DNA of 64,000 nt from Candidatus Beckwithbacteria bacterium CG10_big_fil_rev_8_21_14_0_10_34_10 (GCA_002773945.1 PEZT01000010.1:4028-68027), one strand, 5' to 3'. Shown: positions 761 to 63,594, numbered from the stretch's first letter. A program made the numbers and translations. Notes: a model not told the origin generated them from the letters alone.

Positions 761-1537
761 TTATTTTCTTTGGACTTTTATCCTAAAACCAATTGATTCT
801 TTAAAATTGCTTTTTAATTTATCTTGTTTCCATTTTAAAAGTCTTTGATATAAAGGCAAAGAAAAACCACCAATTAAGTCAATAAAACCAGCCCAAGACG
901 TATCATAAACAACCGGCTCAATTTTCAAAATCTTAAAGCCATAATCCTCTAATATTTTTTTTATCCCTTTCTGTGAGTATTCAGTTTTGTGATCAGAATC
1001 AGAGTAAAAGTTTAAGCCAAATCTTTTCTGGATCTTTTTCCAGGAAGTGTTTTTGTTGGGAATTGAAATAAACACTTCTCCTTTTTTTTTCATAACTCTT
1101 TTTATTTCTTTTAAAAGCTGGTTTCTTTTATTTAAATGCTCTAAAACATCCAAACATAAAACCTTATCAAAATAGCTGTTTTTAAAAGGTAGTTTTTTCT
1201 CCAAATTTAAATGTAAAATCTTAGTATTTTTTATTCTTCCATCTAAAATTGTTTTTTTAGCAATTTGAAGTTCATTTTGATCATAGTCCACCCCAATTAC
1301 TTTGAGGCATCTCTTGGCTGTTTTTAAAGTATTTTGACCATTACCGCAACCTATATCTAAAACTAAATCTGTTTTTTTAATATCTTTTAAATACCAGCTT
1401 TGTCTTTTTTTGACTAAATGTTTGGGGTGAATCGGGTATTTGCTTTTTCCAGTTAGCTGGGTTAGGCGACAGGATAAAGCAGACAGATTCTTGCTTTTTT
1501 TTAGAAACCAGACAAAAGGAAATAAAACCTTAAACAT
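761..1537 (-). CDS. class I SAM-dependent methyltransferase
   Basis: Motif I VLDIGCGNGQNT and motif LDVLEHL (Methyltransf_11/23-like). Convergent with the plus-strand methyltransferase across a 3-nt gap. Confidence 0.8.
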   Translation of the reverse strand: MFKVLFPFVWFLKKSKNLSALSCRLTQLTGKSKYPIHPKHLVKKRQSWYLKDIKKTDLVLDIGCGNGQNTLKTAKRCLKVIGVDYDQNELQIAKKTILDGRIKNTKILHLNLEKKLPFKNSYFDKVLCLDVLEHLNKRNQLLKEIKRVMKKKGEVFISIPNKNTSWKKIQKRFGLNFYSDSDHKTEYSQKGIKKILEDYGFKILKIEPVVYDTSWAGFIDLIGGFSLPLYQRLLKWKQDKLKSNFKESIGFRIKVQRK

Positions 1538-2642
1538 TTTTTAAAATCTCTATCTCTTTAGCTAGAAGTTTTTGAATATTAAATTCTTGCTCGGCTTTTT
1601 TCCTAGCCTTTAAACCTAACTTTTTTCTAAGCCGATGGTTTTCAATTAAAGTTAATAAGTTGGCCCTAATTTCTTCAGGATTAAAGCCAGTTTTTAAAAT
1701 CTCTTTTTTATTTTCAAACTCTTCTACCCCACTATAATTCCCGACTAAGCAGGGGAGTCCTAAAGCCATTGCTTCAATTAAGGCTTTTGGCTGTCCCTCT
1801 TTATATGAAGGCAGACAAAAAATATCAGCCCCCTGATAATATCCAGAAAGTTTATTATGAACTACCCTGTCAATAATTTTTAAATTAACTTCTTTCTTCT
1901 TTGCCAATAAAATCAATTGGCTCCTTAGTTTACCTCTCCCTATAAAAAGCAAGTTAATTTTAGCCTTGTCTTTTATTAAAGCGGTTGCTTTTATAAGATT
2001 TTCTAAGTTTTTTTGCTTTTCTAGCCTGGCCACCGTCAAAACATTCACCCCTGAACCTTTAAGTAGTTTTTTTGCCTTTTCTGGTTTAAATTTCTTTGTA
2101 TCAACTCCATTAGGAACATAAAATATTTTAGCCCGAGGGTATTTACTTTGTAAATTCAGCTTGTTTTTTTTGTTCGTGACAATTACTCCAGAAGCAAAAT
2201 AAAAAGCAATTTTTTCTAAACCTTTTAAAAGAATTGGTCTTATTCTTTGGTTTTTAAATTTAGCAAAAGCATAATAATCATAACCATAGGTAAAAATAAA
2301 CGGCTTTTTAAAAAATATTCGACAAATTATAGCGGGTATTACTCCCGTTAACTGCATAACTCGAAAAACATCTATATTTTTAACCCGAGAAAGATGAACA
2401 AAGGGAATTAAAAACTGATAAAAAAACCGATGCCAATTATGCTTATTTTCTAAAACAAAACAGCTTTTAGGCAAACTAAGCTTTAGCTGATCATAGGTAA
2501 AAATGTAAACCTGATCAAACTTTTCTTTGTAATTACTAAGATAATAATTAAAAAAACGGCTGTCTTGTCCAGATTTCTTTAAAGAAGAAAAACTATCTCC
2601 CGGGCTTAAAAAAATTCCAAGGTTAGAATTTACTTTGTTCAT
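1530..2642 (-). CDS. GT4 family glycosyltransferase (retaining, GT-B fold)
   Basis: C-terminal E-X7-E type motif EGQPKALIEAMALGLPCLV. Length 370 aa. Confidence 0.8.
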   Translation of the reverse strand: MNKVNSNLGIFLSPGDSFSSLKKSGQDSRFFNYYLSNYKEKFDQVYIFTYDQLKLSLPKSCFVLENKHNWHRFFYQFLIPFVHLSRVKNIDVFRVMQLTGVIPAIICRIFFKKPFIFTYGYDYYAFAKFKNQRIRPILLKGLEKIAFYFASGVIVTNKKNKLNLQSKYPRAKIFYVPNGVDTKKFKPEKAKKLLKGSGVNVLTVARLEKQKNLENLIKATALIKDKAKINLLFIGRGKLRSQLILLAKKKEVNLKIIDRVVHNKLSGYYQGADIFCLPSYKEGQPKALIEAMALGLPCLVGNYSGVEEFENKKEILKTGFNPEEIRANLLTLIENHRLRKKLGLKARKKAEQEFNIQKLLAKEIEILKNV

Positions 2643-4108
2643 TTATAATTATTACATTTAATATTAGGGAATAACTCGGCTGACTGATGATAGTTTTGCT
2701 TAAAACTCTTCGCAAGAATACTTGTTTTAACACTGGGAACAATTAATTCTTTCTTAGAATAAATATTAAAATAATTATTAAATTCATCTTTAAGTTGATA
2801 AGAATAATTAAATTCTTCTTTGTTTAACTGATCATTAAACAATAAAGCATAATCACTGGTGGCTAAGTTTTTTTTATCTGGTAGGCCAGTATAAAATAGG
2901 GTTACAAAAGAATCGAGGTTGCTGAAAACTTGCTCCCTGCATAAAGCATTTTCTCGAACAATAAAGCCAGCGGCTTTAAATAGTTGAGGATTTTGATAAT
3001 ATCCTTTAATGCTATTGGTAAAATCTATTTTCTCAGGGAAATAAAACTTTTTTATAAAATTCAAGTTAATTAAGACCAAAAATAAGACTAAAAAAAATGA
3101 TCCTAATTTATTAAAGGACGCTAACTTTTTTAACCCAAAGCTTGCTCCAATAATAATTAAAGGGAAAAAATTTAGAAAATGAACTGTCGGTGCTCGATGA
3201 AAAGAAAAATAAAGCAAGGGAAATAAGAATATGAGGTTATATTTTTTCCCCCACTTATCAAAAAAGCTTGTAAAAAATAAAATCAACAAGCTTAAGCTAA
3301 ATAAAAAGTGATTATAAAGATTTAAAACCGTGATTGATTTTAAAACATTAAAGTTAAAACCCTCCCCTCCTCTGGCTAATATTCTAAAAAACCCAAATTC
3401 TTTTAAATCAGCTGGATTAATGTAATTTGTCTTGGCGGCCAAATAAGGAATAAAACTCCACAATCCAATGAACAGTAAAAATAAAACACCAAAAAGAAAA
3501 AAAGGGAGAATTATCTCTTTTTTTAAAACCTTTTTCTTGTATTTTAAAAAAAGGTTTAAACCCATTCCCGGCAAAAGAAAAATGCTGTCAATATAAAAAA
3601 GCAAACTGATAAACAGATAAATAAGACTCTTAGTTAAATCCCTATAATTCTCTTTTTTTAAAAAATTAAGGAAATAAAAAGCCGCTAAGCTGACAAACAA
3701 AAAAAACCCAGATACCCCATTGGTTAAACGAGATAAAATAACCACTCCGCTGGTGGCATAAAAAAGGAGAGTTAGAGTGACAATAAAATGACTATTAGTT
3801 AATAACTTAACCGTCTTTTTAACAACAAAAAAAGTGATTAAAGCCATAATTATACTAGGCAAGCGGAGTAAAAACTCATTTGGCCCTAAGAAAATAAAAG
3901 GAATTTCTATTAATCCCCTGGCCGGTTCATGACCATATAAAAAAATGCTCGGTAAAAACTTAATATTTAACCGGTAAAATAAAGCATAAAAAATTCCCGA
4001 AACTTCATTGCCATGTAAAACTCCATTGGCCTTGAAAAACAAAAAAAAGAAAAAAAGCAAAAAGATAAGATAGTCAAACCAAAACCAAGATAATTTCTTT
4101 TTAATCAT
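2639..4108 (-). CDS. polytopic integral membrane protein, possible GT-C-like glycosyltransferase
   Basis: More than 10 predicted hydrophobic helices. Family not recognised. Confidence 0.55.
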   Translation of the reverse strand: MIKKKLSWFWFDYLIFLLFFFFLFFKANGVLHGNEVSGIFYALFYRLNIKFLPSIFLYGHEPARGLIEIPFIFLGPNEFLLRLPSIIMALITFFVVKKTVKLLTNSHFIVTLTLLFYATSGVVILSRLTNGVSGFFLFVSLAAFYFLNFLKKENYRDLTKSLIYLFISLLFYIDSIFLLPGMGLNLFLKYKKKVLKKEIILPFFLFGVLFLLFIGLWSFIPYLAAKTNYINPADLKEFGFFRILARGGEGFNFNVLKSITVLNLYNHFLFSLSLLILFFTSFFDKWGKKYNLIFLFPLLYFSFHRAPTVHFLNFFPLIIIGASFGLKKLASFNKLGSFFLVLFLVLINLNFIKKFYFPEKIDFTNSIKGYYQNPQLFKAAGFIVRENALCREQVFSNLDSFVTLFYTGLPDKKNLATSDYALLFNDQLNKEEFNYSYQLKDEFNNYFNIYSKKELIVPSVKTSILAKSFKQNYHQSAELFPNIKCNNYK

Positions 4109-5039
4109 CCCTGCCTGATTTTAAATAATACAAAACATCTTCAGAAAGCTGGCGGTGCTTGGCTAAAATTTTACCCACTAAAGCAATCCCAAAAAACTGA
4201 ACGCCAGTTAAACATAAAAGGACGCCCAAAATTAAAGATTGAACATGACCTGAACCATTCCCCTCAAAATAGAAAATTAAAAACCTAATCAAAGGCACTA
4301 AACCAATAATAATAAAAATTGAAGCCAAAATAGAAAAAACTTTTAAAGGCTCATAAAGTAAATAAACCATTAAAATATTAACCACTGACTGCCTTAAATG
4401 AATCAAAGTATTTTTAGCTAACCGAGACCTTCTGGTTGGCCTATTGACCTTTATTTTTATAAAAGAAGCTTTCAGACCCTTTTTCCCCACCTGAATCAGA
4501 GTATCAATCACGTAGGAAAAGTTAGAAGTAGGATTGATTTCTAAAAGAGCCTGTCTTGAATAAGCCCTAAATCCGGAAGTAGCATCAGGTATTTTTATAC
4601 CGGCGGCCCGGGAAACTATTTTACTCCCAATGACTTGTAAAAACTTTTTAATCTGAGAAAAATGGCTGATTTTTTTTACCTGTCTATCGGCAATAACAAC
4701 TTCTGCTTTTCTTTGAACTATTGGTTTAACTAAATCAGGAATGTATTTTCCCGGATATTGATTATCGCCGTCAGTATTAACTAAAATATCATATCTTTTT
4801 TTAAGAGCAAATTTTAAACCTCTTTTAAAGGTATAACCTAATCCCCTATTGGTTTTGTTTCTTATAATATGATTAACTTTAAACTTTTGGGCTGTTTCAA
4901 AAGTTTTATCAGTCGAGCCATCATCAATTATTAAAACATCGATTGTCTGAATTCCTTTAATTTTTTTAGGAATTGCCTTTAAAACCAAAGGCAGGGTCTT
5001 TTCTTCATTAAAACATGGAATTTGAATTAGTAACTTCAT
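4101..5039 (-). CDS. GT2 polyprenyl-phosphate glycosyltransferase (GtrB/ArnC/Dpm1-like) with C-terminal transmembrane helices
   Basis: N-terminal IPCFNEE and IIDDGSTDKT motifs, DXD-like TDGD, and two C-terminal transmembrane segments (ILASIFIIIGLVPLIRF, LILGVLLCLTGVQFFGIAL). Confidence 0.8.
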   Translation of the reverse strand: MKLLIQIPCFNEEKTLPLVLKAIPKKIKGIQTIDVLIIDDGSTDKTFETAQKFKVNHIIRNKTNRGLGYTFKRGLKFALKKRYDILVNTDGDNQYPGKYIPDLVKPIVQRKAEVVIADRQVKKISHFSQIKKFLQVIGSKIVSRAAGIKIPDATSGFRAYSRQALLEINPTSNFSYVIDTLIQVGKKGLKASFIKIKVNRPTRRSRLAKNTLIHLRQSVVNILMVYLLYEPLKVFSILASIFIIIGLVPLIRFLIFYFEGNGSGHVQSLILGVLLCLTGVQFFGIALVGKILAKHRQLSEDVLYYLKSGRDD

Positions 5040-5040
5040 T

Positions 5041-5601
5041 TTACTTTCCTAGAACCATAAAATGGTTTAGGCCAAATTCAAAACTTTGATAATATTTAAC
5101 TTCTAAATCAGCTTCTTTTGCCAATTGGATAAGTTCTTTTTTAGAAAAATAGTGTTTATGATCTTTATTTTGGCGGGAAAATATTCTAATCTTAACCCCT
5201 AACTCTAATATGGTCTTGGCCTTTTTATCTGGAGTAGTAATAATTATTCTGCCCTTTTTATTCAAATGTTTGCTAAGATTTTTTACTATTTTAAAAGGTT
5301 CATCTAAGTGTTCTAAAACAGCCAGCATTAAGACTATATCTTGTTTAAAAAGCTCTAAAGAAGTAAAATTTTCAGTGTTGAAATATGAGTTAATAAACTT
5401 CTCCTCTCCATATTTTTGGCAAGCTTCTTGATAACGCTGTTTATTTCCTTCAATCCCAAAATAATCAGTTTTTTTTGGCAAATAATCAATCATTTCCCCT
5501 GAACCACAACCAATATCTAAAATCTTCTTCCCTTTTGGGATAAAAGAAATAGCTTTTTTAAATCTAAGATATCTTAATAATGGTGATAATAAACCATTCA
5601 T
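5041..5601 (-). CDS. class I SAM-dependent methyltransferase
   Basis: Motif I ILDIGCGSGEM and motif LAVLEHLDEP. Confidence 0.8.
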   Translation of the reverse strand: MNGLLSPLLRYLRFKKAISFIPKGKKILDIGCGSGEMIDYLPKKTDYFGIEGNKQRYQEACQKYGEEKFINSYFNTENFTSLELFKQDIVLMLAVLEHLDEPFKIVKNLSKHLNKKGRIIITTPDKKAKTILELGVKIRIFSRQNKDHKHYFSKKELIQLAKEADLEVKYYQSFEFGLNHFMVLGK

Positions 5602-6884
5602 TTCAAAGATTGATAAATTGATATAATTCTCTCAGTTATTTTCTTTTGATTAAATTTTTGTTTAACAAATTGGTAATGATTCTCTCCTATTTTAAGGCTT
5701 AAGCTTTTATCTCGCAATAGTTTTAAAATTACCTCAGCCAGCTGACTGGGGTTTTTTCTTGAAACAATAAACCCTGTTTTACCAGCTATTATTTGTTCTT
5801 TTAAACCGCCGCTTCTAGTTATTATTACCGCCTTTTTGAAAAGAGCTGCCTCAATTGGAACCCGTCCAAAGGGCTCAATCCCAGCTGTGGGAACAACTAC
5901 AAGATCTGCTAATTGATAGTATTTAAAAAGTTCTTCATGAGAAACTTCGGGAATAATTTTAAAATAAGATTGGGTTTTAACTTTTAGGCTTCCCTTGCCA
6001 ATCAAAAGAAAAACAACATTTTTTTCTCTTTGACAAACAATCTCCCCAGCTTTCAGTAAATCATAAACTCCTTTCCCTAAAGTGAGACGGCCAGCATAAA
6101 GAACTACTTTCTTGTTCCCAAGCTGGTGCTTCTTTCTAAGGCGGATTATTTCTTCATTATTTGTCTTTTTAACTCCCAATGGCGGCAAATTATAAACTAC
6201 CTTAATTTTATCTTTGCAAACCAAGTCTGCTTTTAAATAAATCTCCCTTAAACTATTGCTGATAGCGATTAATTTATCACAATTTTTTAATAACCTTCGC
6301 TTCATTAAGTTATCTATCCAGGAATAGAGTAAAGAGGCACGGGCATAAAGATATTTTATTTTAGATTTTGGTTTTAAATATAAATTAATATATTCAGGCA
6401 CGCATTGGTTCCAGAAATGAGAAAAGCTCGAGGATTCTCTTTTAATAGATTTTTTTTGCAAGCAAGTTCCTACTGGACAAAAAAGAACAAAATTTCTCAA
6501 AGTAAAAACTAATGGCTTTCTTAAAATATATTTTGCCAAGACAGCTGCTGGCAAGGAAAACCTTTCCTGAAGATGCAATAAATCAACTTTTTCTCTAATA
6601 CTGTAATAAACTATCCAAAAACCAAAATATAAATAATACAAAGGCTGGGAATTAAGAAAATAAGGCAGAGTCTGACTTTTATTTTTAAGTTTAAAAGGAA
6701 AAGGAAAACGGATAATTTTAAAACCTTTACTCTCCTCTGTTTTCGGGTTCTTCCCATAATTAGGCGTTAAAACAACCACTTCTTCCCCTTTTTTTGCTAA
6801 TCCTTGGGCTGAGTAATAACTACTCCATTCTGCTCCTCCAGGAGCAAAGGGAGGAAAATAGTCAGAGATAAAAAGAATTCTCAT
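5598..6884 (-). CDS. GT4 family glycosyltransferase
   Basis: Motif EPFGRVPIEAALFKKAVIITRSGG near the C-terminus. N-terminal GGAEWS resembles glycogen-synthase-like GT4 starts. Confidence 0.75.
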   Translation of the reverse strand: MRILFISDYFPPFAPGGAEWSSYYSAQGLAKKGEEVVVLTPNYGKNPKTEESKGFKIIRFPFPFKLKNKSQTLPYFLNSQPLYYLYFGFWIVYYSIREKVDLLHLQERFSLPAAVLAKYILRKPLVFTLRNFVLFCPVGTCLQKKSIKRESSSFSHFWNQCVPEYINLYLKPKSKIKYLYARASLLYSWIDNLMKRRLLKNCDKLIAISNSLREIYLKADLVCKDKIKVVYNLPPLGVKKTNNEEIIRLRKKHQLGNKKVVLYAGRLTLGKGVYDLLKAGEIVCQREKNVVFLLIGKGSLKVKTQSYFKIIPEVSHEELFKYYQLADLVVVPTAGIEPFGRVPIEAALFKKAVIITRSGGLKEQIIAGKTGFIVSRKNPSQLAEVILKLLRDKSLSLKIGENHYQFVKQKFNQKKITERIISIYQSLK

Positions 6885-6922
6885 AATTAAAAAACCTACT
6901 ATTAACTAACAATTAATAATTT

Positions 6923-8056
6923 CTAATTAAAATTAGTTTTAATTTTTTTATAAATCTCTATTTGCTTTCTAGCTGATATAGCCCAAGAAAATTGCTGACT
7001 ATATCCCCTCGCTGATTGCCCCATTTTTGCTCTTAGATTTTTATCTTTTAATAACCTCTTAATTTTTTCTCTCCAGTCACTAATATCATTAAACTTAGCT
7101 AAATAGCCTGTCTTACCATTTATAATGAGTTCTTTTAAAGAGCTCACGTCTGAAGCAATTGCCGGAATACCACAGCTACCGGCTTCAATAATAGGCATCC
7201 CAAAACCTTCTTTTTGTGAGGGAAAAAGAAAAATATCAGCTAGGTTATAATAGTCAATTTTTTCTTCTTCTTTAATAAAACCAGTAAAAATTACTTTATT
7301 TTTTAAACCTAATTTATTTTTTATCTTAATTAGCTTAGATTTTAACCTTCCTTCTCCTACAATCAACAATTTTATATTCTCCTCCTGTATCTTCGTCATA
7401 AGTCTTAAAAGAAAACCAATATTTTTCCTTGGCTTTAACCCTCCTAAAAATAAAAGCACTTTTTTGTTTTTAAGATTATATTTTTTTAATAAAAAGTCTT
7501 TTTTCATTTTAGGCTTGAATTTTTTATCCACTCCGGCATATATAATTTTGATTTTTTCTTTGTTTAGCTCATATTTTTCAACAATTTCATTTTTAGTAAA
7601 TTGGCTGTCAGCGGTAATTACATCCCATTTTTTGATAAACAACTTGTTAATTAAATCAAATAAAAAATTATCTTCAAGATGATGATAATGAACAACAAGA
7701 TTAATTTTGGAAGATAAAAAAAACTTAAAAATTAAAGCTCCTAAACCAACAAAATAAGGAGAGTGAACTCTTAAAATATTAAACTTATGGTTTTTTAAAA
7801 TCCCAAATAAATAAGGAAGAATTAACAAATTAAACAAATAAGGCGGCCACACAAAAGAAATAGGTAAATAGTAAACTATGAGATTCTGGTGTTTAAAGCA
7901 AGGCTTGTTTTTAGGTAGAATAACAATTACTTTAACTCCTAAATCACACAAATATTTTAGAGTTTCACGATCATAAACCTCTCCCCCCGAATTAGATTGA
8001 GAAGAGATACCCAGCTGGGGAGAACAAACAACTAGTTTCTTATTTATTTTTTTCAT
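6923..8056 (-). CDS. GT4 family glycosyltransferase
   Basis: Motif EGFGMPIIEAGSCGIPAIASDVSSLKE. Confidence 0.8.
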   Translation of the reverse strand: MKKINKKLVVCSPQLGISSQSNSGGEVYDRETLKYLCDLGVKVIVILPKNKPCFKHQNLIVYYLPISFVWPPYLFNLLILPYLFGILKNHKFNILRVHSPYFVGLGALIFKFFLSSKINLVVHYHHLEDNFLFDLINKLFIKKWDVITADSQFTKNEIVEKYELNKEKIKIIYAGVDKKFKPKMKKDFLLKKYNLKNKKVLLFLGGLKPRKNIGFLLRLMTKIQEENIKLLIVGEGRLKSKLIKIKNKLGLKNKVIFTGFIKEEEKIDYYNLADIFLFPSQKEGFGMPIIEAGSCGIPAIASDVSSLKELIINGKTGYLAKFNDISDWREKIKRLLKDKNLRAKMGQSARGYSQQFSWAISARKQIEIYKKIKTNFN

Positions 8057-18257: not shown

Positions 18258-18607
18258 TCCTTTTTCTTTTTTGGTTTATCTTTTAAGGCTATCTCTCTTA
18301 CCAATTGACTAATTTCTTCCCGAAGATTCTCTATTATTACATTAGTCCTAAAAACTAAATAAAACAAAAGAGCAATGGAAATATATATTATGGCGTCTAC
18401 TCCCCGACCAATCCCTAAAAGACTAGCCCAATAATTGCTAAAACCGGGATAAAAAATAGTAAACAAAGCGGCTAACCACAAAGCCAGCCAAAAAAGAAAA
18501 GACCCAAAATTAATTGTTCCCTCTTTAAAACGAAAGTAAACTCGGGAAACAGCAAAAAGCAAAAATAAACTTAATAGTATTTGAACTGGTAAAAAAATTA
18601 TATTCAT
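18254..18607 (-). CDS. DUF2304-family small membrane protein
   Basis: 117 aa with 3-4 transmembrane helices. Signature LGIGRGVDAIIYISIALLFYLVFRTNV followed by a C-terminal charged coiled-coil tail. This family characteristically accompanies Dpm1-like GT2 genes. Confidence 0.65.
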   Translation of the reverse strand: MNIIFLPVQILLSLFLLFAVSRVYFRFKEGTINFGSFLFWLALWLAALFTIFYPGFSNYWASLLGIGRGVDAIIYISIALLFYLVFRTNVIIENLREEISQLVREIALKDKPKKKKE

Positions 18608-19305: not shown

Positions 19306-19320
19306 TTATTTTCTAAACAC

Positions 19321-42011: not shown

Positions 42012-42015
42012 ACTT

Positions 42016-53365: not shown

Positions 53366-53423
53366 TGTTTTCCTTCTTTTTACTATTATATAATAAATTC
53401 ATTGTAAATAATCTAATCTTTTT
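53366..53423. promoter_or_regulatory. divergent intergenic region between the minus-strand GT4 gene and the plus-strand membrane-protein pair; candidate bidirectional promoter
   Basis: 58-nt AT-rich spacer containing TATAAT at 53389-53394 and a second TAAATA-like element at 53405-53410 upstream of ATG 53424. Such hexamers are common by chance in this AT-rich DNA. Confidence 0.25.
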
Positions 53424-54617: not shown

Positions 54618-54624
54618 TGAAAAG

Positions 54625-55908: not shown

Positions 55909-57583
55909 TCTTTGTCAGTTGCCAGATTGGTTCACCTAAAAAATTATAGATTAAAAAATTATTTCCCTCTTTTGTTGGTCTAGATCCGGGAACAACTTTT
56001 TCCACTAATAAAATTGATTTTCCCCTTTCAATTTTCTGTTTTAAACTATCTGGATGTTTCCATTCAGCTAAATTTTCATTAAAGCGGTATTTGTCATAAA
56101 TGACTACCCTATCCATTCCCACAAGTTCTCTTTCTGCTTTTAACTGAAAATCAGCTGGTTCAAAAGGTAAATAAAAAGCCAAAAAAATATAACTGACTTC
56201 AACATTAGGATCAAAAAGAATTAAGTCATATTTTTCCTCATCGGTCTTTATCTTTTGACAAACTTCCTTTATCCCCGGCAGCCAAAATTTATCCTGAATC
56301 TGGGGAAAAATAATAAAATAGGCCAGCAAATAATCGACAATGGAAAAAAGAAGAACAGCGCTAACAACAATATTTTTATATTTCCCCTTTTTTACCTGCC
56401 AAGCCCAAAATTCTTCTAAACCTAAAGCGGCAAATAGAACCAAAATTAAGTGAAAAAACAATAATCTAGTTAGAATAGGTGAATCAATAGTAAAACCATT
56501 GGCTAAAGGAGAAATAAAAAAACATCCTAAAAGAAACAGGTTTTCTTTTTTCTCTAGGTTTTTAACTACCTTTAAAAAACCAATCAGAATAAAAGGAAAA
56601 AACACCACTAAAATATTGCCAAAATTTAAGCTCCCTAAACTGTGCCAGGAATTATTATCACTTTCAAAAAATATAAATTTGGGATTAAAAGCCGCTAAAT
56701 AGTTTTTTGAAAAATCCTTGAATAATAAAACCGGTTGATTATAAAAAACTCTGGCTAAAAATATTGGTATTTCTTTCTTATCCATTAAAAACGTATTCTT
56801 GCTTATTCTCTCTTTTAATTCTTCTTGGTTAAAAATAGTCGTATTAGCCCGACCCTGATTTCCTTCTTTAGCTAAATGCCAATAACTAAACCAGCCTAAA
56901 CTTAATAAAACAACAAATAAAAAAACAAGCAGGTTCTTTTTTGGTTTTGATTTTTTTTCTACAGTTTTAAAATAGTCCTTTCTAAAAAACAAAAAACATA
57001 AAATTATTAATGGGGGAGTAATAAACAAGGGGGTATTGTAAATAAAAAAAGAAACAATAAATAAGGGTAAAGCGACAAAAAGTAATCCTAATTTTTTTCT
57101 GGCTTTTAAAACATAAGTTAAGCCAGTTAAAGTAAAAAATAGAGCCATCGTGGCTTCAAACTGCTGACGGCTATAATGTAAGTGAAAAGGAGAAACACTC
57201 AAAAGAAAAATAAAAAGCAGGGCTAAATTTTTCCTCTTGGGAAAAATCTCTTTAACAAAAAAATAGCCGCTAATTACGGTCAACCAGCCAAATAAAGCCG
57301 CCGGCAACCTCACAGCAAAAGCATTTAAACCAAAGATCTTTATTAAAGGAGCCGTTAAATAAATATATCCAGGGATTTTATTATCTCCAAAAGCTCGAAA
57401 AACTAACGGCCATAATCTACCATGTTCATCTTTTTGAGTCTTTAAAATTGAATAAGCATTAAAACCAACTGAAACTTCATCTCGGTTTAACTCTGAAGGA
57501 ATTTTGCTTAAAAAAACAAAACGAAGAATAAAGGCTAAAACAATTATTATTAAAAAGATAAAATTCCGTCTGTATTTTTTCAT
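55898..57583 (-). CDS. PMT_2/GT39-GT83-like GT-C glycosyltransferase, paralog 6
   Basis: LNRDEVSVGFNAYSILKTQKDEHGRLWPL and PFHLHYSRQQFE motifs. Confidence 0.65.
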   Translation of the reverse strand: MKKYRRNFIFLIIIVLAFILRFVFLSKIPSELNRDEVSVGFNAYSILKTQKDEHGRLWPLVFRAFGDNKIPGYIYLTAPLIKIFGLNAFAVRLPAALFGWLTVISGYFFVKEIFPKRKNLALLFIFLLSVSPFHLHYSRQQFEATMALFFTLTGLTYVLKARKKLGLLFVALPLFIVSFFIYNTPLFITPPLIILCFLFFRKDYFKTVEKKSKPKKNLLVFLFVVLLSLGWFSYWHLAKEGNQGRANTTIFNQEELKERISKNTFLMDKKEIPIFLARVFYNQPVLLFKDFSKNYLAAFNPKFIFFESDNNSWHSLGSLNFGNILVVFFPFILIGFLKVVKNLEKKENLFLLGCFFISPLANGFTIDSPILTRLLFFHLILVLFAALGLEEFWAWQVKKGKYKNIVVSAVLLFSIVDYLLAYFIIFPQIQDKFWLPGIKEVCQKIKTDEEKYDLILFDPNVEVSYIFLAFYLPFEPADFQLKAERELVGMDRVVIYDKYRFNENLAEWKHPDSLKQKIERGKSILLVEKVVPGSRPTKEGNNFLIYNFLGEPIWQLTKITT

Positions 57584-58491
57584 AAGTTAGCTTTAGAAAA
57601 CTTCAATGCCAAAAAATCTTTAACTGCTTTTTGCTGGTATTTATTTCCTTTTACTTTAAATAAATATTTTAAACCTTCTTTTAAAACTGACAGTTTAGCT
57701 TTTAAAGAAGCATATTTAAAAGCAAAAAACAATCTATTTCTTGTTTGGTAATAGACTGAAGTTTTATTTCCAGCTCCACCGCTAGCAGAAGCATTTTTAT
57801 GCCAAAGAAAAGGATTAGGATCATAAAAAACTTCAAAACCTGCTTTTTTGGCTCTTAAAGAAAAATCAATATCCTCCCAATACATAAAGTACTTTTCATT
57901 TAAAAGCCCAATTTTTTCTAAACAGCTGGCTCTAATTAACATACAACAGCCGGTCGAAAAATCAGTTTTAGAAAAACTGTTATACCGGCCAATATCAACC
58001 TCATCTATTCCTCTATGGGAAGCTAGAATATTTTTCCAGTCAATTCTACCGCCAGCATACCAAATAACTTTTCCCCTCTCTTTTTCTTTGTATCTTTCTT
58101 TATGAAACTCAAAACCTTTGGCAAAATATATTTTAGGAGAAACTAAGGCAATCTTATCCCTTTCCTTAACTCCTTTAATTAAATCTACTAGTAAATTCTT
58201 ATCCACTAAAGTATCGTTGTTTAAAAGGAGTAAAAAATCCGGTTTAAATTTCAAAGCATAACGAATACCCGCATTATTCCCTGCCCCAAAACCTAAGTTT
58301 TCTTTACTCTCAATCACCTTAATTTGAAAAAACTTCTTTTTTATTGCTTTGATACTGCCGTCATTAGAAGCATTATCAACCACTATAGTTTTTAGATCTA
58401 TTTTTCCTACTTCCAATTTTTCCAAACTCCCAAGGCATTCAAGGGTGTTCTTTTTACCATTGTAGTTTAGAATAATAATAAAGATTTTCAT
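57580..58491 (-). CDS. GT2 family glycosyltransferase (WbbL/rhamnosyltransferase-like)
   Basis: IIILNYNGKKNTLECL and VVDNASNDGS motifs. Confidence 0.75.
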   Translation of the reverse strand: MKIFIIILNYNGKKNTLECLGSLEKLEVGKIDLKTIVVDNASNDGSIKAIKKKFFQIKVIESKENLGFGAGNNAGIRYALKFKPDFLLLLNNDTLVDKNLLVDLIKGVKERDKIALVSPKIYFAKGFEFHKERYKEKERGKVIWYAGGRIDWKNILASHRGIDEVDIGRYNSFSKTDFSTGCCMLIRASCLEKIGLLNEKYFMYWEDIDFSLRAKKAGFEVFYDPNPFLWHKNASASGGAGNKTSVYYQTRNRLFFAFKYASLKAKLSVLKEGLKYLFKVKGNKYQQKAVKDFLALKFSKANL

Positions 58492-58498
58492 TTTTCCT

Positions 58499-59956
58499 TT
58501 AAGACTTAAGCTCTTTATATAAAAAACCCGCTTCTTCTTTTAGTTTTCTTTTATTGACTAAAATAATTATTCCCATATATATAAAAATACTTAAAATAAT
58601 AATAATAATAATAGTAGTAGCCAAGTTTAAAATTAAATATTTTTTAAGCCAGCTTATTAAAACAAACATCACTAGAGAAGCGCTTAAGGGTCCCAAAACT
58701 TGAGAAGAAAAATTAAATTTAACATACTTTTTAACAATAAAGATGGCTATAAATGAGCTTAAATTAACTAGGACTGTCCCTACAGCCACTCCCAAAAAAC
58801 CAAATTTAACCGCTAAATATGGAGTAAACAGCCAGGTTAGAACTGTCCAGAGAACCATTAGTTTAAAAGTGGTTTTTATTCTTCCAATAGCATTAAAAAT
58901 TGTTGTTAAAAAGACTGCTAATGCTCCCCAGGCTGAGGCAAAACAATAAAGAAAAAGAGGAATTAAAGCTGGCTGCCATTTAAGATAACGAGGAATAATT
59001 TCTATTAAAGGCTTGGCGATAATCACTATCCCCGTTAAACTTGGAATAATAAGAAAACTTAAGAAGTAAAGAACTTTTTCAATGGCTATTTTTAATTTTT
59101 CCTTATCATGCTGAAGTCTGGCAAAAGAGGGAAAAGCAACCTTAATCGTGTTGTCAAGAAAATATCGTAAAGGCATTGTCGCCCATTTCTCTGCCCAACC
59201 AACCAACGCTACCCCTTCACTACCAATAATTCTGGCTAAAAGTAGAATCATAAACTTATCTTTAACAACCGCTAAAAAAGTGTTCATTTGGTAAGGCACA
59301 CCAAACTTTAGTAATCTTTTTAAAACCTTAAAAGAAAAGTTTAAACCAATCTTCCAAGGAGCAATAAAATAAAGAACAGCCGTTCCCAAAAAACTTCTTG
59401 CTAAAACTGCTAAGGTATAACTCTTTATCCCCCAGCCTTTCCATGCCAGAATAATAATAATTAAATTAAAACTAATAGTTTCGACAAATTGAGGAATAAT
59501 AATTTTATTAAATTGCAATTTTCTTTCCAATAAAACACTAGGAATTGTTTTTAAAGAAGACAAAAAGAAAGCTAAACTAAAGCTATAAACCAGCATCATT
59601 CCTGCTTTATCCAAATTGTAAAACTGTTTAATAAGAGGAGATAGAATAAATATGAGAACTAGTAATAACAAAACTAATATTTGCTGGATGGTAAAAGTCG
59701 AACGGATTTCTTTTGTGGTTGGCTCTTCTTTTTTTTGAACTAGAGCAGCCGCTAAACCCACATCAGAAAAGTAGGCTAAAATGTCAATCATGGCAGAAAC
59801 TAAAATGAAAAGGCCAAACTCTTTTTTTCCTAAAAAAACAGTAATAAAGAAATAGCCAATAAAGTTAATTAACTGTAAAAAAACAGTCCTGGTGCTTAAG
59901 GCTAAAACGCTTTTAATAGAACGCTTTTTTATAGATTTTAAATCAAAATTATCCAT
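58499..59956 (-). CDS. wzx: Wzx-type oligosaccharide flippase (MOP superfamily, polysaccharide biosynthesis protein)
   Basis: 485 aa, about 12-14 helices. N-terminal SIKSVLALSTRTVFLQLINFIGYFFITVFLGKKEFGLF is typical of Polysacc_synt. Confidence 0.65.
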   Translation of the reverse strand: MDNFDLKSIKKRSIKSVLALSTRTVFLQLINFIGYFFITVFLGKKEFGLFILVSAMIDILAYFSDVGLAAALVQKKEEPTTKEIRSTFTIQQILVLLLLVLIFILSPLIKQFYNLDKAGMMLVYSFSLAFFLSSLKTIPSVLLERKLQFNKIIIPQFVETISFNLIIIILAWKGWGIKSYTLAVLARSFLGTAVLYFIAPWKIGLNFSFKVLKRLLKFGVPYQMNTFLAVVKDKFMILLLARIIGSEGVALVGWAEKWATMPLRYFLDNTIKVAFPSFARLQHDKEKLKIAIEKVLYFLSFLIIPSLTGIVIIAKPLIEIIPRYLKWQPALIPLFLYCFASAWGALAVFLTTIFNAIGRIKTTFKLMVLWTVLTWLFTPYLAVKFGFLGVAVGTVLVNLSSFIAIFIVKKYVKFNFSSQVLGPLSASLVMFVLISWLKKYLILNLATTIIIIIILSIFIYMGIIILVNKRKLKEEAGFLYKELKS

Positions 59957-61653
59957 AGAATCGCTATTCCACTTATAACAGAAATTAATTCTGCCATTTT
60001 TCTTATTAAAGTGGCTTTAAAAACCAGCATCACTTCATGTTCTCCAGGTGGAATAATTGTTTTAATTATCCCATTATTATCCTGATATTCAAAATCCCAT
60101 TTTTTCCCATCAAGATAAAGAGTCCAACCGGGAAAATAAAAGCGGTTTAACTGCAACTGACTCTCCTCATCTGAATCAACCATTAATCCTAGTTTCTGGG
60201 TTTTAGATTCTAAAACTTTAACTTTAGGATGACCATTAATAACTTTAAAATCTTCTAAGGCTACTTCCGGCTCTTCTCTGACCCAGGTCGGAATATAGTC
60301 AGGAATAACTCCACTCATAGACATCCTGATCATTTTCTCATCCGAATAATATAAATCCTTAGGGTCAATATATTCTTGGGGTTTAAAATATTGAAGATTA
60401 ACTTTTAAAATTAAAGCGCTAACTAAAAATAAAAGAGCTCCAGGCAAAACTGACTTGTTTAAAAACTTAGTTTTAAGTTTTAAATCCTTTAAATAAGATA
60501 ACCAACCACCAGCTAAAAAAGCTACTAAAACAATAATAATCGAATTAAAACGCCAGGGAAATTGAATATAGGAGAAAATAGGAATCGCATCCCAGATTGA
60601 CTTCGCTTTATAAGTGGCTAAAAAAGCTAAACCCAAACCTGAAATGATAAAAAAGAAAATTAACTTTAATCTCAAACTTAATTTTCTTTTCCAACCCATC
60701 TCCACTAAACCTAAAAGCAAAGTTATTAACCCTAATCCCAAATGGACTCTCCCTAAGTGAAATGACATCCCGTCATTAGGACCATCAACTGAACCGGCAA
60801 ATCCCCATCGACCCCAGTAATATTGTCGAAAATATAAAAAATGATGAGCATAATGACTATACCCGCCGGTTAATTCTGCCACCCGAGTAAAACCCTTTTC
60901 AAAAAAAGCCGGTATTAAAAAGAAACTACTTAAACCAATCCCCAAAAGAAAACTTACAAAAACTCTTTTAAGCTTTTTTTTATCAATCTTTTTTATCAAT
61001 AAATAGAAAATGGCGAATATAATAAAAAAGGGGAGAATGATTAAGTCTAGAATTGTATGGGATAAAAGAAAAAAAGCCAATAATAAAGAATTTAACCCGA
61101 TTATTTTCTTATTCTTTTTATCAATTACTTCACTAATTCCCCACATAACCCAGGGAATTAAACTAATAGCAAACAACTCACTTAAAGCCCCTCTAACATA
61201 AAAATCAACTGCCCTATAAGGAGAATAAACAAAAGCTAAAGCCGCTAAAAACCCAGCCATTTTCCCCCAAAACTTACGAGCTAAAAAAAACATCCCAGAA
61301 AACCCTATAAAAAAAGTCAGCATAAAAACAAGTTTAATAGAATTAATAAAACTAAAAAATAAACTAAATAATACTCCAACAAAATATGGTAAAGAGCCAT
61401 AGAAACTAAATAAAGGCATCCCATAGCCCCAACCCAAATTCCTCGACCAATATGGCGGAAAATGACCATCCTTTAAAGCCCGACTCAACTCAACTAACCT
61501 AGCAACATGGGTATAATCATGCATCCTAAAAAATTTAGGATTAAAAAGAGGCCAACATGAAGGTAAAATAATCAAAATAATTAAAGCTATGAAAAGCAAT
61601 CTTTTTTTTTCAAGCTTTATTCTGGGTTTAATTTTTGTAAAATATTTTTTCAT
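59938..61653 (-). CDS. YfhO/PTPS-related-like GT-C-type membrane protein, paralog C
   Basis: FRMHDYTHVARLVELS...PPYWSRNLGWGYGMP N-terminal motif and C-terminal YFPGWTLYLDGKKWDFEY...PPGEHEVMLVFK. Confidence 0.55.
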   Translation of the reverse strand: MKKYFTKIKPRIKLEKKRLLFIALIILIILPSCWPLFNPKFFRMHDYTHVARLVELSRALKDGHFPPYWSRNLGWGYGMPLFSFYGSLPYFVGVLFSLFFSFINSIKLVFMLTFFIGFSGMFFLARKFWGKMAGFLAALAFVYSPYRAVDFYVRGALSELFAISLIPWVMWGISEVIDKKNKKIIGLNSLLLAFFLLSHTILDLIILPFFIIFAIFYLLIKKIDKKKLKRVFVSFLLGIGLSSFFLIPAFFEKGFTRVAELTGGYSHYAHHFLYFRQYYWGRWGFAGSVDGPNDGMSFHLGRVHLGLGLITLLLGLVEMGWKRKLSLRLKLIFFFIISGLGLAFLATYKAKSIWDAIPIFSYIQFPWRFNSIIIVLVAFLAGGWLSYLKDLKLKTKFLNKSVLPGALLFLVSALILKVNLQYFKPQEYIDPKDLYYSDEKMIRMSMSGVIPDYIPTWVREEPEVALEDFKVINGHPKVKVLESKTQKLGLMVDSDEESQLQLNRFYFPGWTLYLDGKKWDFEYQDNNGIIKTIIPPGEHEVMLVFKATLIRKMAELISVISGIAILWIILI

Positions 61654-62867
61654 TTTTTAATCTTTAATAACTTAAACCCTTTATAAAAAAAATAACAAAT
61701 AACAGTTAATAAAGGAATAATAAAATAAATATATTGTCTAAAAATGGGAACCGGCGGGTTCCAATTACCATACCATATATAGGGTAAATACCTTAATAAG
61801 GCCATAAAAGAGATTAAAACAAAAAACTTGACCGCCTTAATATTTTTGGCAAGGATTGCCCAAGTTAAAGGCCAAATAAAATACCAAGAGTGCATTAGGC
61901 CAAACCGACTAAACTGAATTCCAAATAAGATTACTGCTCCCCAAAAACCCAGATCAAACTTTGGTTTAAAATACCAAAGAAGAAAAAGAGGTAGTAAAAC
62001 TACCGTTGCGTACTTAATCGAAACAGAAAAAAGAAAGAAAAAGACAAAAAACAAAAACAATTTCAACTTCTCTTTGGTTATCCTTTCCTTTTTAATTTTA
62101 TTTAAAAAATAAAAGCTTAGTAAAGCCGGAGCCATCATTGAAAAATCATTATGCCCCACACCAATGGCTTCAATTAAAATCAACGGGTTTAATAAAAACA
62201 AAACTAATCTTAACTTCCTATCTTTAAGTTTTAGGTCTTTAAATAGTTTTCTCAATATTAAAAAAGTAAACCAATAAAACAAAAAAGAAAAAGCTTTAAA
62301 ACTTAAAATCTCAGTAAAAATTCTATTTAATCCCAAGATAAAAGGAATTAAAGAAATAACAGTCCAACCATAAAAATAAGGGGCGGCCGTATGAATATTT
62401 CTCATAAAACCCAACATTGGGTCTGGAAACTCCATTGCTACATGCTTATGGGGATCAGCTCCATAAACGACTATCATCTTGGCATTAAAAATATAGTTAA
62501 AAATATCATGGGAAAAAGCTGGATAAGCAAAAACAAAAATTCCTCCCACTCCTAAAGATAAAATAATTACTTCCTTTAATAAAATCTTTTTACTCTTAAC
62601 AGCTTTAGAAACTAAAAAATAAAACAAATAAGTCAGCAAGCTAATTAAAACAAAATATAGGGTTGATCGGGGACGGTTAAAATATCCAAACCAACGCATT
62701 TTCCGTTGAAACTCTAAAAAAGGCTGAAATGAAGTCAGAGTTAAACCAATGTCTAAAAAAGAATAACTATAAACAGCAAAAAGTAATGAAAATAGAGCAA
62801 AACAAAATAGCCATATTTTAGGTGAAAATGATTTAAACTTTACTTCCATATTTACCCAATAAGTCAT
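61650..62867 (-). CDS. polytopic membrane protein
   Basis: About 11 helices. Unknown family. Confidence 0.5.
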   Translation of the reverse strand: MTYWVNMEVKFKSFSPKIWLFCFALFSLLFAVYSYSFLDIGLTLTSFQPFLEFQRKMRWFGYFNRPRSTLYFVLISLLTYLFYFLVSKAVKSKKILLKEVIILSLGVGGIFVFAYPAFSHDIFNYIFNAKMIVVYGADPHKHVAMEFPDPMLGFMRNIHTAAPYFYGWTVISLIPFILGLNRIFTEILSFKAFSFLFYWFTFLILRKLFKDLKLKDRKLRLVLFLLNPLILIEAIGVGHNDFSMMAPALLSFYFLNKIKKERITKEKLKLFLFFVFFFLFSVSIKYATVVLLPLFLLWYFKPKFDLGFWGAVILFGIQFSRFGLMHSWYFIWPLTWAILAKNIKAVKFFVLISFMALLRYLPYIWYGNWNPPVPIFRQYIYFIIPLLTVICYFFYKGFKLLKIKK

Positions 62868-63594
62868 TCAATTTAATTCTTAAAACATCCAAAAACATTC
62901 TTATTGAATCTTTTATAAAACTAACCCTCTTAGTTTTATAATGCTGCCAAAAGACTGGCACTTCAGCAATTTTATAACCCATTTTCTGGCCTAAAAACAG
63001 AAGCTCAACGTCAAAAGCACCAGTATAAGCTCTTTTTGTTTCTAAATGCTTTACTTTTAGTTTTGAAAAAATATCTTTAGCGGCTTTGGTTTTTAAAAGC
63101 TTAAAACCACACTGAGTATCGTGAATTCCCGGTAAAGCAATCAGCTGAACAACTAAATTAAAAACTTTTCCCATCAAATGACGGTAAAAAGGTTCTTTTT
63201 CTCTTCTAGCTCCTTTTATTTCCCGAGAACCAATAATAATATCATAGCCTTTTTTTAAAAAAGGAAATAACTTCTCTACTTCTGAAAGGGGAGTCGCCTG
63301 ATCAAAATCAGTAAACAAAATATTTTCTCCTAAAGCTTCTACCACTCCCATAGAGACTGCCGCCGCTTTTCCCTGATGAGAATTTTTAATTAAACGCCAA
63401 TTACTCCTGCTTCTAATAAATTCCTCTATTAATTTCCTGCTTTTATCCAAAGATCCATCATCAACAATTATTACCTCATAAGAATAGGGAAATTTTTTAA
63501 GATAATCCGTCACTTTATCTAGGGCCCCTTTTTTATAGTTATCCTCTTCATTAAAACTGGGAACAATTATGGAAAGAAATATTCTATTTTTCAT
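62833..63594 (-). CDS. GT2 polyprenyl-phosphate sugar synthase (Dpm1/Alg5-like)
   Basis: IVPSFNEED, IIVDDGSLDKS, TDFDQATP and QCGFKLL motifs. Confidence 0.7.
   Translation of the reverse strand: MKNRIFLSIIVPSFNEEDNYKKGALDKVTDYLKKFPYSYEVIIVDDGSLDKSRKLIEEFIRSRSNWRLIKNSHQGKAAAVSMGVVEALGENILFTDFDQATPLSEVEKLFPFLKKGYDIIIGSREIKGARREKEPFYRHLMGKVFNLVVQLIALPGIHDTQCGFKLLKTKAAKDIFSKLKVKHLETKRAYTGAFDVELLFLGQKMGYKIAEVPVFWQHYKTKRVSFIKDSIRMFLDVLRIKLNDLLGKYGSKV

Follow-up and report, generated by a model that had tools for sequence, protein, structure and literature searches.

A GT-C-rich envelope-glycan locus of Candidatus Beckwithbacteria and a probable pathway of lipid-linked assembly followed by extension outside the membrane

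How does a bacterium assemble a glycan when the genes for it are dominated by membrane glycosyltransferases of the GT-C type? The question is raised by 64,000 nucleotides of DNA (hereafter the window) from the groundwater bacterium Candidatus Beckwithbacteria (Microgenomates, Candidate Phyla Radiation, CPR), with a GC content of ~30%, in which positions 761-63594 are an island of glycosylation genes. Three proteins of the window are 100% identical to Candidatus Beckwithbacteria proteins COT75_01655, COT75_01680 and COT75_01855, annotated as hypothetical. A description made from the sequence alone (the sequence-only reading) saw here a system of lipid-phosphate-monosaccharide donors rather than a classical O-antigen or capsule locus; taken as a whole, that observation holds in part, and GT-C genes are far more enriched than it noted. 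The explanation that we consider probable, taken as one statement, is that the window is the middle portion of an envelope-glycan locus of at least ~83 kb, and that the locus encodes a hybrid pathway in which a lipid-linked glycan is made in the cytoplasm, exported, and then extended outside by GT-C enzymes from lipid-phosphate sugars.

A hydropathy count gave 25 polytopic proteins in 761-63594. One is a Wzx flippase, and the other 24 are all GT-C or GT-C-like; the tail of a 25th such gene lies at the window end. The "at least ten" of the sequence-only reading was correct and a large undercount. Genes are named by their first coordinate, TM denotes transmembrane helices, and hhalign values are scores against GT-C profiles.

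2639-4108, minus strand: GT-C transferase (PMT_2, 30.6 bits, above cutoff; ~9 TM; hhalign 98.5% to family A)
8833-10038, minus strand: GT-C transferase, GT87/PimE/Gpi18-like, the protein itself without a Pfam match (family profile 96% to PMT_2 profiles, 200 columns)
10035-11438, minus strand: GT-C transferase, no Pfam match (hhalign 98.1%, 284 columns; ~10 TM)
11348-12469, minus strand: probable GT-C transferase, no Pfam match (hhalign 95%, 168 columns, thin alignment)
12466-13821, minus strand: GT-C transferase (PMT_2, E 9.4e-10)
14740-16002, minus strand: GT-C fold transferase from a family that has no Pfam model, with a predicted ALG12/ALG9/ArnT-like fold (AlphaFold2 and Foldseek)
19321-20487, minus strand: GT-C transferase, no Pfam match, Microgenomates core (hhalign 96.2%, 288 columns; orthologs in 8 loci)
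20496-22244, minus strand: GT-C transferase, family B (PTPS_related/YfhO; Pfam and paralogy)
23271-24824, minus strand: GT-C transferase (PMT_2; Pfam)
29917-31647, minus strand: GT-C transferase, family B (YfhO-like; Pfam and paralogy)
31634-33331, minus strand: GT-C transferase, family A (PMT_2; Pfam and paralogy)
33316-34992, minus strand: GT-C transferase, family A (Pfam and paralogy)
34989-36695, minus strand: GT-C transferase, family A (PMT/PMT_2; Pfam and paralogy)
36682-38358, minus strand: GT-C transferase, family A (Pfam and paralogy)
38410-39945, minus strand: GT-C transferase, family A (PMT_2 E 6.1e-11; relatives in Microgenomates)
45235-46902, minus strand: GT-C transferase whose family has no Pfam model (profile A5 of that family, 95.9% to family A, 374 columns)
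46875-48404, minus strand: probable GT-C transferase (hhalign 94%, 275 columns, thin alignment)
48394-50013, minus strand: GT-C transferase, PMT_2 superfamily (hhalign 100%, E 8.5e-74; BLASTP match to 23271)
50898-52292, plus strand: GT-C transferase (PMT_2 E 7.6e-11)
53424-54617, plus strand: GT-C fold transferase, paralog of 54625 (38% identity)
54625-55908, plus strand: GT-C fold transferase with a predicted ALG6/PIG-M/PimE/ALG3-like fold, no Pfam model (AlphaFold2 and Foldseek)
55898-57583, minus strand: GT-C transferase, family A (Pfam and paralogy)
59938-61653, minus strand: GT-C transferase, family B (PTPS_related E 6.7e-14; paralogy)
61650-62867, minus strand: probable GT-C transferase (hhalign 95% to family A, thin alignment; 85% to the 8833 family)
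63661-64000, minus strand: C-terminal part of a PMT_2 GT-C gene (513 aa) cut by the window end (full gene at 8393-9934 of flank L001)

Thirteen of the 24 complete genes are recognised by Pfam (models PMT_2, PMT, YfhO and PTPS_related, where PMT_2 is an ArnT-like superfamily model, not GT39), eight by profile comparison and three by predicted fold or paralogy. They come from at least eight sequence families, at least four of them without Pfam models. BLASTP unites 31634, 33316, 34989, 36682, 38410 and 55898 as family A (27-38% identity), and 20496, 29917 and 59938 as family B (29-33%). The other eleven membrane proteins had no Pfam match, and the ten of them tested at E<=10 had none even at that threshold, at which Wzy_C and Wzz also gave none. 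Sequence profiles of the 54625, 8833 and 45235 families found nothing meaningful in the PDB. In hhalign comparisons the GT-C candidates scored 94-100% against GT-C profiles, with the Wzx flippase, as a negative control, at ~0%. An Asp just after TM1 is invariant or near-invariant in deep alignments of the 14740, 45235 and 8833 families (invariant D36 in the first; invariant D60 and near-invariant E61 in the second), and the 54625 family has a near-invariant E58 in the first loop region. Four of 50 members of the 8833 family match Pfam GT87, and one homolog is named 'Gpi18-like mannosyltransferase'.

The AlphaFold2 model of 14740 (mean predicted confidence, pLDDT, 94.6) matched ALG12 best in Foldseek, with AglB, ALG9, STT3, ArnT and PglB also at the top; that of 54625 (pLDDT 92.3) matched ALG6, PIG-M, ArnT, PimE and ALG3 with TM-scores of 0.5-0.6. 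The sequence identity of ALG enzymes to GT-C proteins of the locus is only 12-15%. Members of the 54625 family were found almost solely in Patescibacteria in the search made here. The 14740 family is widespread outside CPR (Anaerolineales, Methanothrix soehngenii, Bacteroidales, Saprospirales), and some members have additional C-terminal domains (PF25490, PF06229). Two other assignments were considered and rejected. The proteins of ~400 aa (8833, 14740, 19321, 53424, 54625, 61650) were examined as Wzy or O-antigen ligase, and their folds and profiles point to GT-C. An oligosaccharyltransferase role for 14740, suggested by AglB, STT3 and PglB among its fold matches, was set aside on its length of 420 aa, its lack of a C-terminal domain and its best match to ALG12.

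The window also encodes 11 GT2 enzymes, six of them Dpm1-like and five not. The Dpm1-like genes, putative synthases of the lipid-phosphate sugars that GT-C enzymes use, are at the six positions that the sequence-only reading had named. They are listed here with a small membrane protein that adjoins one of them.

4101-5039, minus strand: polyprenyl-phosphate-sugar synthase-like GT2 with two C-terminal TM helices (ArnC/GtrB type); 8-nt overlap with GT-C 2639
18254-18607, minus strand: DUF2304 small 3-TM protein (GacJ/Rv3632 family; DUF2304 E 2.2e-22), putative partner of the adjacent synthase 18604
18604-19305, minus strand: PpgS-like GT2 of the polyprenyl-phosphate-N-acetylhexosamine synthase type (PpgS model E 2.5e-51, below the equivalog cutoff)
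26856-27605, minus strand: polyprenyl-phosphate-sugar synthase-like GT2 (AglJ-like; AglJ model E 4.6e-36)
29190-29936, minus strand: polyprenyl-phosphate-sugar synthase-like GT2, a highly conserved core gene (orthologs at ~E 1e-108)
39942-40715, minus strand: polyprenyl-phosphate-sugar synthase-like GT2; ATGA overlap with GT-C 38410
62833-63594, minus strand: polyprenyl-phosphate-sugar synthase-like GT2 (PgfS/ArnC-like; profile and NCBIfam), the weakest of the six

All six belong to a single paralog group by BLASTP. Their top NCBIfam models are AglJ, PpgS, ArnC, dolichyl-phosphate hexose transferase and PgfS, and a joint profile of the six finds as top PDB matches the Pyrococcus Dol-P-Man synthase 5mlz (6.6e-40), GtrB 5ekp (2.5e-28) and ArnC. 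Only 4101 has a C-terminal TM pair; the other five have no TM helices. In five of the six cases the synthase gene abuts a GT-C gene (4101/2639, 18604/19321, 29190/29917, 39942/38410 and 62833/61650). The gene of TM-less 18604 also overlaps the DUF2304 gene 18254 by ATGA, the same pairing of a soluble GT2 with a 3-TM protein as in PpgS/Rv3632 and GacI/GacJ, and this pair is kept in four related loci (L007-L010). GacJ is a DUF2304 protein whose mycobacterial homolog Rv3632 stimulates PpgS (bioRxiv 10.1101/180810), and GacI activity is enhanced by GacJ (bioRxiv 10.1101/180810; PMC8035078). Dpm1-like donors and extracytoplasmic GT-C transfer, as proposed by the sequence-only reading, are well supported by homology and predicted folds.

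The accompanying claim, that such a system stands in place of a classical locus, was too strong. The window also has genes for cytoplasmic steps and export: seven GT4 and five non-Dpm1 GT2 Leloir transferases, a flippase that the earlier inventory did not mention, a GDP-heptose pathway, and methyltransferases that use S-adenosylmethionine (SAM), three complete and a fourth partial.

62-757, plus strand: weak methyltransferase-like 3' part of a 305-aa open reading frame (ORF) off the window start (Methyltransf_12 E 0.0022, below cutoff; full ORF at 10781-11698 of flank L002)
761-1537, minus strand: SAM-dependent methyltransferase (Methyltransf_11 E 5.6e-22)
1530-2642, minus strand: GT4 (GT-B) glycosyltransferase (Glycos_transf_1 E 1.1e-30)
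5041-5601, minus strand: SAM-dependent methyltransferase (Methyltransf_23 E 2.4e-19)
5598-6884, minus strand: GT4 glycosyltransferase (Pfam)
6923-8056, minus strand: GT4 glycosyltransferase (Glycos_transf_1 E 1.3e-46)
8040-8849, minus strand: GT2 Leloir transferase, EpsE/TuaG-like, not Dpm1-like (Pfam, NCBIfam)
13775-14743, minus strand: GT4 glycosyltransferase (Pfam Glycos_transf_1, match in two stretches)
15995-17116, minus strand: divergent DegT/PseC/ArnB-like pyridoxal-phosphate aminotransferase (DegT_DnrJ_EryC1 E 3.5e-24; PseC/ArnB top matches)
17109-18257, minus strand: GT4 glycosyltransferase (Pfam)
22225-23271, minus strand: GT4 glycosyltransferase, conserved core (Pfam, locus comparison)
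26066-26845, minus strand: GT2 transferase of the non-Dpm1 group, conserved core (Pfam, NCBIfam, locus comparison)
27536-28387, minus strand: SAM-dependent methyltransferase (Pfam)
28387-29193, minus strand: GT2 transferase of the non-Dpm1 group (Pfam, NCBIfam)
40696-41403, minus strand: sugar-1-phosphate nucleotidyltransferase (NTP_transferase E 1.1e-33)
41400-42011, minus strand: GmhB-like heptose bisphosphate phosphatase (NCBIfam E 1.7e-40)
42016-43023, minus strand: HddA-like heptose-7-phosphate kinase (NCBIfam E 1.8e-61)
43020-43640, minus strand: GmhA-like sedoheptulose-7-phosphate isomerase (NCBIfam E 1e-51)
43637-44341, minus strand: HddC-like heptose-1-phosphate guanylyltransferase (NCBIfam E 1.1e-41)
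44375-45238, minus strand: GT2 Leloir transferase (Pfam, NCBIfam)
52289-53365, minus strand: GT4 glycosyltransferase (Pfam)
57580-58491, minus strand: GT2 Leloir transferase, rhamnosyltransferase-like (Pfam, NCBIfam)
58499-59956, minus strand: Wzx/MOP-family flippase (Polysacc_synt_3 E 2.4e-50; MOP flippase E 4.5e-39)

The five non-Dpm1 GT2 enzymes have EpsE, EpsD, MftF-like, SunS-like or rhamnosyltransferase models as top matches. The GT4 at 13775-14743 is short (322 aa), and its split Glycos_transf_1 match may reflect an internal deletion or a divergent enzyme. Positions 40696-44341 contain the whole set for GDP-D-glycero-alpha-D-manno-heptose (GmhA, HddA, GmhB and HddC-like). The first three are the top NCBIfam models of 43020, 42016 and 41400; for 43637 the HddC model comes second to mannose-1-phosphate guanylyltransferase (2.8e-47). 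All of these matches are below equivalog cutoffs, so that anomer and nucleotide are not certain. GC peaks in the cassette, at 0.35 compared with ~0.30 for the window. With this cassette, a second nucleotidyltransferase and the DegT-like aminotransferase 15995, the window does contain nucleotide-sugar genes, contrary to the sequence-only reading.

The island is compact. Its 55 ORFs, 52 on the minus strand and three on the plus strand (50898, 53424, 54625), have a coding density of ~100% and no intergenic gap larger than 58 nt. The 50 same-strand junctions comprise 16 exact ATGA overlaps, 22 other overlaps and 12 gaps of 1-51 nt. The tightly packed, co-directional run of about 50 minus-strand genes described from the sequence alone is real, apart from the three plus-strand genes that were overlooked, whereas the statement that almost all junctions are of the ATGA type was exaggerated. 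Neither is the island bounded by the window. In the 10 kb examined on each side (L001 beyond the window end, L002 beyond its start) glycan genes run on at both ends, bringing the island to at least ~83 kb with ~27 GT-C and ~9 Dpm1-like genes. From the window end, L001 has the rest of the PMT_2 gene, a PMT gene, a gene (4694-6847) for a 717-aa fusion of a Dpm1-like GT2 with a PMT_2 GT-C, hence synthase and transferase in one polypeptide, then adjoining it a GT2 fused to the sole GtrA_DPMS_TM domain found, two epimerases of the short-chain dehydrogenase/reductase (SDR) type, UDP-glucose dehydrogenase and, ~9.7 kb out, the housekeeping gene trmD, where the island apparently ends on this side. From the window start, L002 has a Dpm1-like GT2, an SDR gene, an ATP-binding cassette (ABC) pair of ABC2_membrane and ABC_tran (Wzm/Wzt-like; 13485-14336 and 15141-15899, 3.5-5 kb beyond the window), an SDR dehydratase, DegT, PseG-like, ATP-grasp and NeuB genes; island genes are still present at the 10-kb limit. 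Both flanks together add five SDR enzymes, three GT-C genes and three Dpm1-like GT2 genes. A metagenome scan for a downstream extension returned only a 1.8-kb contig.

In the window itself there is no Pfam match to Bac_transf, Glycos_transf_4, Wzy_C, Wzz, Epimerase/SDR or ABC models, and with the motif scan this bears out the earlier statement that WbaP/WecA, Wzy, Wzz, SDR and ABC exporter genes are absent there. Such sets just outside the window were to make this an ordinary locus: SDR, Ugd, ABC and NeuB/DegT/PseG-like genes do lie within 10 kb, whereas WbaP/WecA, Wzy and Wzz were not found in the window, the 20 kb of flanks or 21 related loci. A phosphoglycosyltransferase motif was likewise found nowhere in the window and 26 loci (447 kb in total), and the gene could lie elsewhere in the genome. 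Wzy is very divergent, so the absence of Wzy/Wzz is probable, not proven; since every polytopic protein except Wzx was classed as GT-C, no candidate for Wzy or a ligase is left.

Much of the island recurs in other Microgenomates. Relatives of GT-C 38410 occur in Gottesman-, Chisholm- and Woesebacteria and in other Patescibacteria metagenome-assembled genomes (MAGs), and ordered comparison of 13 related loci gave a recurring core order in the three named groups: Wzx, GT-C family B, GT2 genes, GT4, GT2, GT-C family A arrays, a PimE-like GT-C on the opposite strand, GT2(26066), GT4(22225), GT-C family B, GT-C(19321), the PpgS-like gene and DUF2304. This order is stitched together in the inferred order of the window, no one locus holding all the pieces; the Wzx end is seen in L018, L022 and L023, and the PpgS end in L006-L010 and L015. 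In a variant of the core an FAD oxidoreductase is followed by a 29190-like synthase. The closest locus, L005 (56% identity to GT-C 38410), is syntenic with 34989-59956 and lacks two blocks, 39942 with the heptose cassette and 46875-52292, from which the island appears modular, a conserved core with variable additions. The heptose cassette and its adjacent GT2 may be a recently acquired module. Several MAGs with close homologs carry the label 'uncultured Pseudomonadales/Gammaproteobacteria' (binchicken assemblies), and a 2.6-kb contig that of Hermodarchaeota (P0003, 71% identity); such labels look like placeholders or mis-binning, not real taxonomic spread.

The Leloir transferases, Wzx, GDP-heptose and flank genes make the pathway a hybrid and not an alternative to classical assembly. 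Its substrates, topology and order of steps are what we infer from the gene content, families, folds, adjacency and conservation described above. In a first stage the seven GT4 and five non-Dpm1 GT2 enzymes would build a polyprenyl-linked glycan on the cytoplasmic face, begun by a priming enzyme encoded elsewhere and drawing on nucleotide sugars made by the locus (GDP-heptose from the window; UDP-glucuronic acid, SDR products and a nonulosonic acid from the flanks). Three or four methyltransferases would modify the glycan, and the Wzx flippase, the flanking ABC transporter or both would export it. In a second stage the six Dpm1/PpgS/ArnC-like GT2 enzymes (nine with the flanks) would load single sugars onto polyprenyl phosphate, one of them presumably with its DUF2304 partner, as GacI works with GacJ. 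After flipping, ~24 GT-C enzymes (27 with the flanks) would, judged from homology and fold, add the sugars singly outside the membrane, extending and branching the glycan much as happens when mycobacteria assemble arabinogalactan and lipoarabinomannan (LAM) or streptococci attach side chains. As final acceptor, a wall polysaccharide, a lipoglycan and a surface protein are all conceivable.

Several points weigh against this hybrid pathway. With no priming phosphoglycosyltransferase in ~83 kb or in related loci, the carrier of the first stage is assumed. The window has no GtrA-type flippase, which would leave a single Wzx to handle several lipid-sugars. Because the NCBIfam scores of the six synthases are all below equivalog cutoffs, sugar identities are not assignable. 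Thin alignments underlie three GT-C assignments (11348, 46875, 61650), and Foldseek E-values are only ~1e-3 to 1e-4, with top matches that are consistently GT-C at TM-scores of 0.5-0.6. Some GT-C enzymes could also use lipid-pyrophosphate-oligosaccharide donors, in the manner of a ligase or oligosaccharyltransferase, and not monosaccharide donors.

Three other explanations, which are not fully exclusive of one another, have to be set beside it. The locus might serve mainly protein O-glycosylation of the PMT or streptococcal Pgf-like kind, with sugars placed on Ser/Thr residues of surface proteins (S-layer, pilin or others) and the resulting O-glycans elongated afterwards. Family A has PMT/PMT_2 matches, 62833 and others match PgfS best, and CPR cells are reported to have Gram-positive-like envelopes with abundant pili (PMC6744442). 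We find this reading doubtful: the PF02366 (PMT) matches of 34989 and 38410 are weak (E 1.3e-7 and 7.6e-7), the window has no MIR domain and so not the PMT combination of PMT domain, luminal MIR and DE motif, and it has no candidate gene for a Ser/Thr-rich substrate. Moreover, the acceptors of YfhO-, PimE/GT87- and ALG-like enzymes in known systems are polymers or lipids, and 12 Leloir transferases, Wzx and the ABC pair indicate a lipid-linked glycan.

The Wzx flippase and the ABC pair could also belong to an ordinary large O-antigen, capsule or S-layer-glycan locus, in which a Wzx/Wzy or ABC pathway makes the backbone, GT-C enzymes only decorate side chains, and initiator and polymerase are encoded elsewhere; the flanking SDR, Ugd and NeuB/DegT genes would suit it. 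In Escherichia coli wecA is also outside the O-antigen cluster. Against this stand the ~2:1 ratio of GT-C to Leloir transferases (24 to 12), the place of GT-C genes in the conserved core of many Microgenomates loci, the missing candidates for Wzy, Wzz and WaaL once all polytopic proteins were classified, and the lack of a phosphoglycosyltransferase motif in the related loci, which together make it very unlikely. Also quite improbable is an ER-like (endoplasmic-reticulum-like) line, in which a polyprenyl-pyrophosphate-oligosaccharide begun in the cytoplasm is flipped by Wzx, ALG-like GT-C enzymes lengthen it on the outer face from polyprenyl-phosphate sugars, and a GT-C ligase or an oligosaccharyltransferase then passes it on en bloc. 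The predicted folds of 14740 (closest to ALG12/ALG9) and 54625 (closest to ALG6, PIG-M, PimE and ALG3) recall that pathway, and GT4 enzymes, flippase and Dpm1-like synthases fit its logic, but such fold similarity is generic to GT-C classes, nothing of the STT3/PglB/AglB type with a C-terminal domain is encoded (14740 has just 420 aa), and no ALG7-like initiator was found. A bolder version of the hybrid pathway, unlikely in our estimate, is that the main envelope glycan of Microgenomates is the product of a bacterial version of the ER pathway. A short lipid-linked primer of cytoplasmic origin would be flipped by Wzx, and two dozen GT-C enzymes supplied by six to nine polyprenyl-phosphate-sugar synthases would elongate and branch it almost entirely outside, with no Wzy; the Pfam-less GT-C families with predicted ALG12/ALG9-like or ALG6/ALG3/PIG-M/PimE-like folds could be hitherto unrecognised bacterial relatives of eukaryotic ALG/PIG enzymes.

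Two further genes of the island fall outside these classes.

24834-26060, minus strand: FAD-dependent oxidoreductase with an amine-oxidase fold (PRK07233 family; NF005560, 428 bits, above cutoff)
50000-50956, minus strand: 318-aa protein with one N-terminal TM helix and a predicted extracytoplasmic domain (no Pfam or NCBIfam match)

The oxidoreductase, whose NCBIfam family PRK07233 is named 'hypothetical protein', has more distant relatives beside the 29190-like synthase in the conserved core of other Microgenomates, and may modify a sugar or lipid-linked sugar. The 318-aa protein has a weak homolog beside a 50898-like GT-C gene in L020 and could be an accessory or acceptor-binding subunit. 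A 103-aa ORF at 17767-18078 (plus strand), wholly inside the GT4 gene 17109-18257, is most likely spurious. No tRNA genes were found in the window.

The dominance of GT-C genes, the Microgenomates-wide core and the size of the locus suggest that a major surface glycoconjugate, typical of the lineage, is made for the most part outside the cytoplasm. A very small CPR genome gives at least 64 kb (probably ~83 kb) to this one glycan locus. Mycobacterium tuberculosis has ~15-20 scattered GT-C genes, and E. coli or Bacillus subtilis 2-4; to our knowledge the clustering here is the densest described. We found no published account of GT-C arrays, mannosyltransferases or glycosylation in CPR, Patescibacteria or Gottesmanbacteria, and as far as we know the composition of the CPR/Patescibacteria envelope is essentially unknown. 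The glycan could matter for episymbiotic attachment to a host or for phage recognition. The locus is also a source of at least four GT-C families that Pfam does not model, and its defined synthase/GT-C gene pairs lend themselves to heterologous expression.

Parts of several known pathways can be recognised in the locus. From a Wzx/Wzy locus it has Wzx and Leloir transferases, with neither the initiating phosphoglycosyltransferase nor Wzy/Wzz found; the ABC2_membrane and ABC_tran components of an ABC-dependent pathway (Wzm/Wzt, TagGH) are found in a flank and are absent from the window. With the eukaryotic ER ALG and archaeal Agl pathways (AglJ, AglR, AglS) it shares the logic of GT4-type steps, a flippase, Dpm1/AglJ-like synthases and GT-C enzymes acting outside, whereas the oligosaccharyltransferase (STT3/AglB) and ALG7-type initiator were not found in it. 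With mycobacterial arabinogalactan, LAM and phosphatidylinositol mannoside synthesis (Emb, Aft, PimE, Mpt; PpgS/Rv3632/Rv3779) it shares assembly outside by many GT-C enzymes from polyprenyl-phosphate sugars, a PpgS-like/DUF2304 pair and PimE/GT87-like members (8833, 53424, 54625). In contrast to mycobacteria, where GT-C genes are scattered over a ~4.4 Mb genome, the genes are packed in one locus of an unrelated CPR host, and the UbiA/DprE arabinose-donor pathway is missing.

The CsbB/GtrB - GtcA/GtrA - YfhO/GtrC systems, which glucosylate lipoteichoic acid, wall teichoic acid and O-antigen, have the same adjacency of synthase and GT-C genes; the locus has YfhO-like family B, and the C-terminal TM pair of 4101 is of the CsbB/GtrB/ArnC type. 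Unlike them, its window has no GtrA-family flippase, five of the six synthases are TM-less, and the scale is far larger. GacI/GacJ/GacK/GacL of Streptococcus pyogenes (PMC8035078, bioRxiv 10.1101/180810) share with it a soluble GT2 with a DUF2304 partner, a Wzx-type flippase and a PMT_2-type GT-C, and both stand beside an ABC-exported polysaccharide pathway, here in the flank. The Gac system adds a single side-chain sugar with one synthase and one GT-C, whereas the locus has 6-9 synthases, 24-27 GT-C genes and no rhamnan genes. Multi-component transmembrane glycosylation has been set out as a general framework (PMC8035078, PMC11127046), and two of its elements, a GT-A fold GT2 synthase of polyprenyl-phosphate sugars and an adjacent polytopic GT-C, are present here by homology; for another, a GtrA- or Wzx-type flippase of the lipid-phosphate sugar, the Wzx/MOP protein 58499 is a candidate. 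The gene content fits the known multi-component transmembrane glycosylation systems, at a much larger scale.

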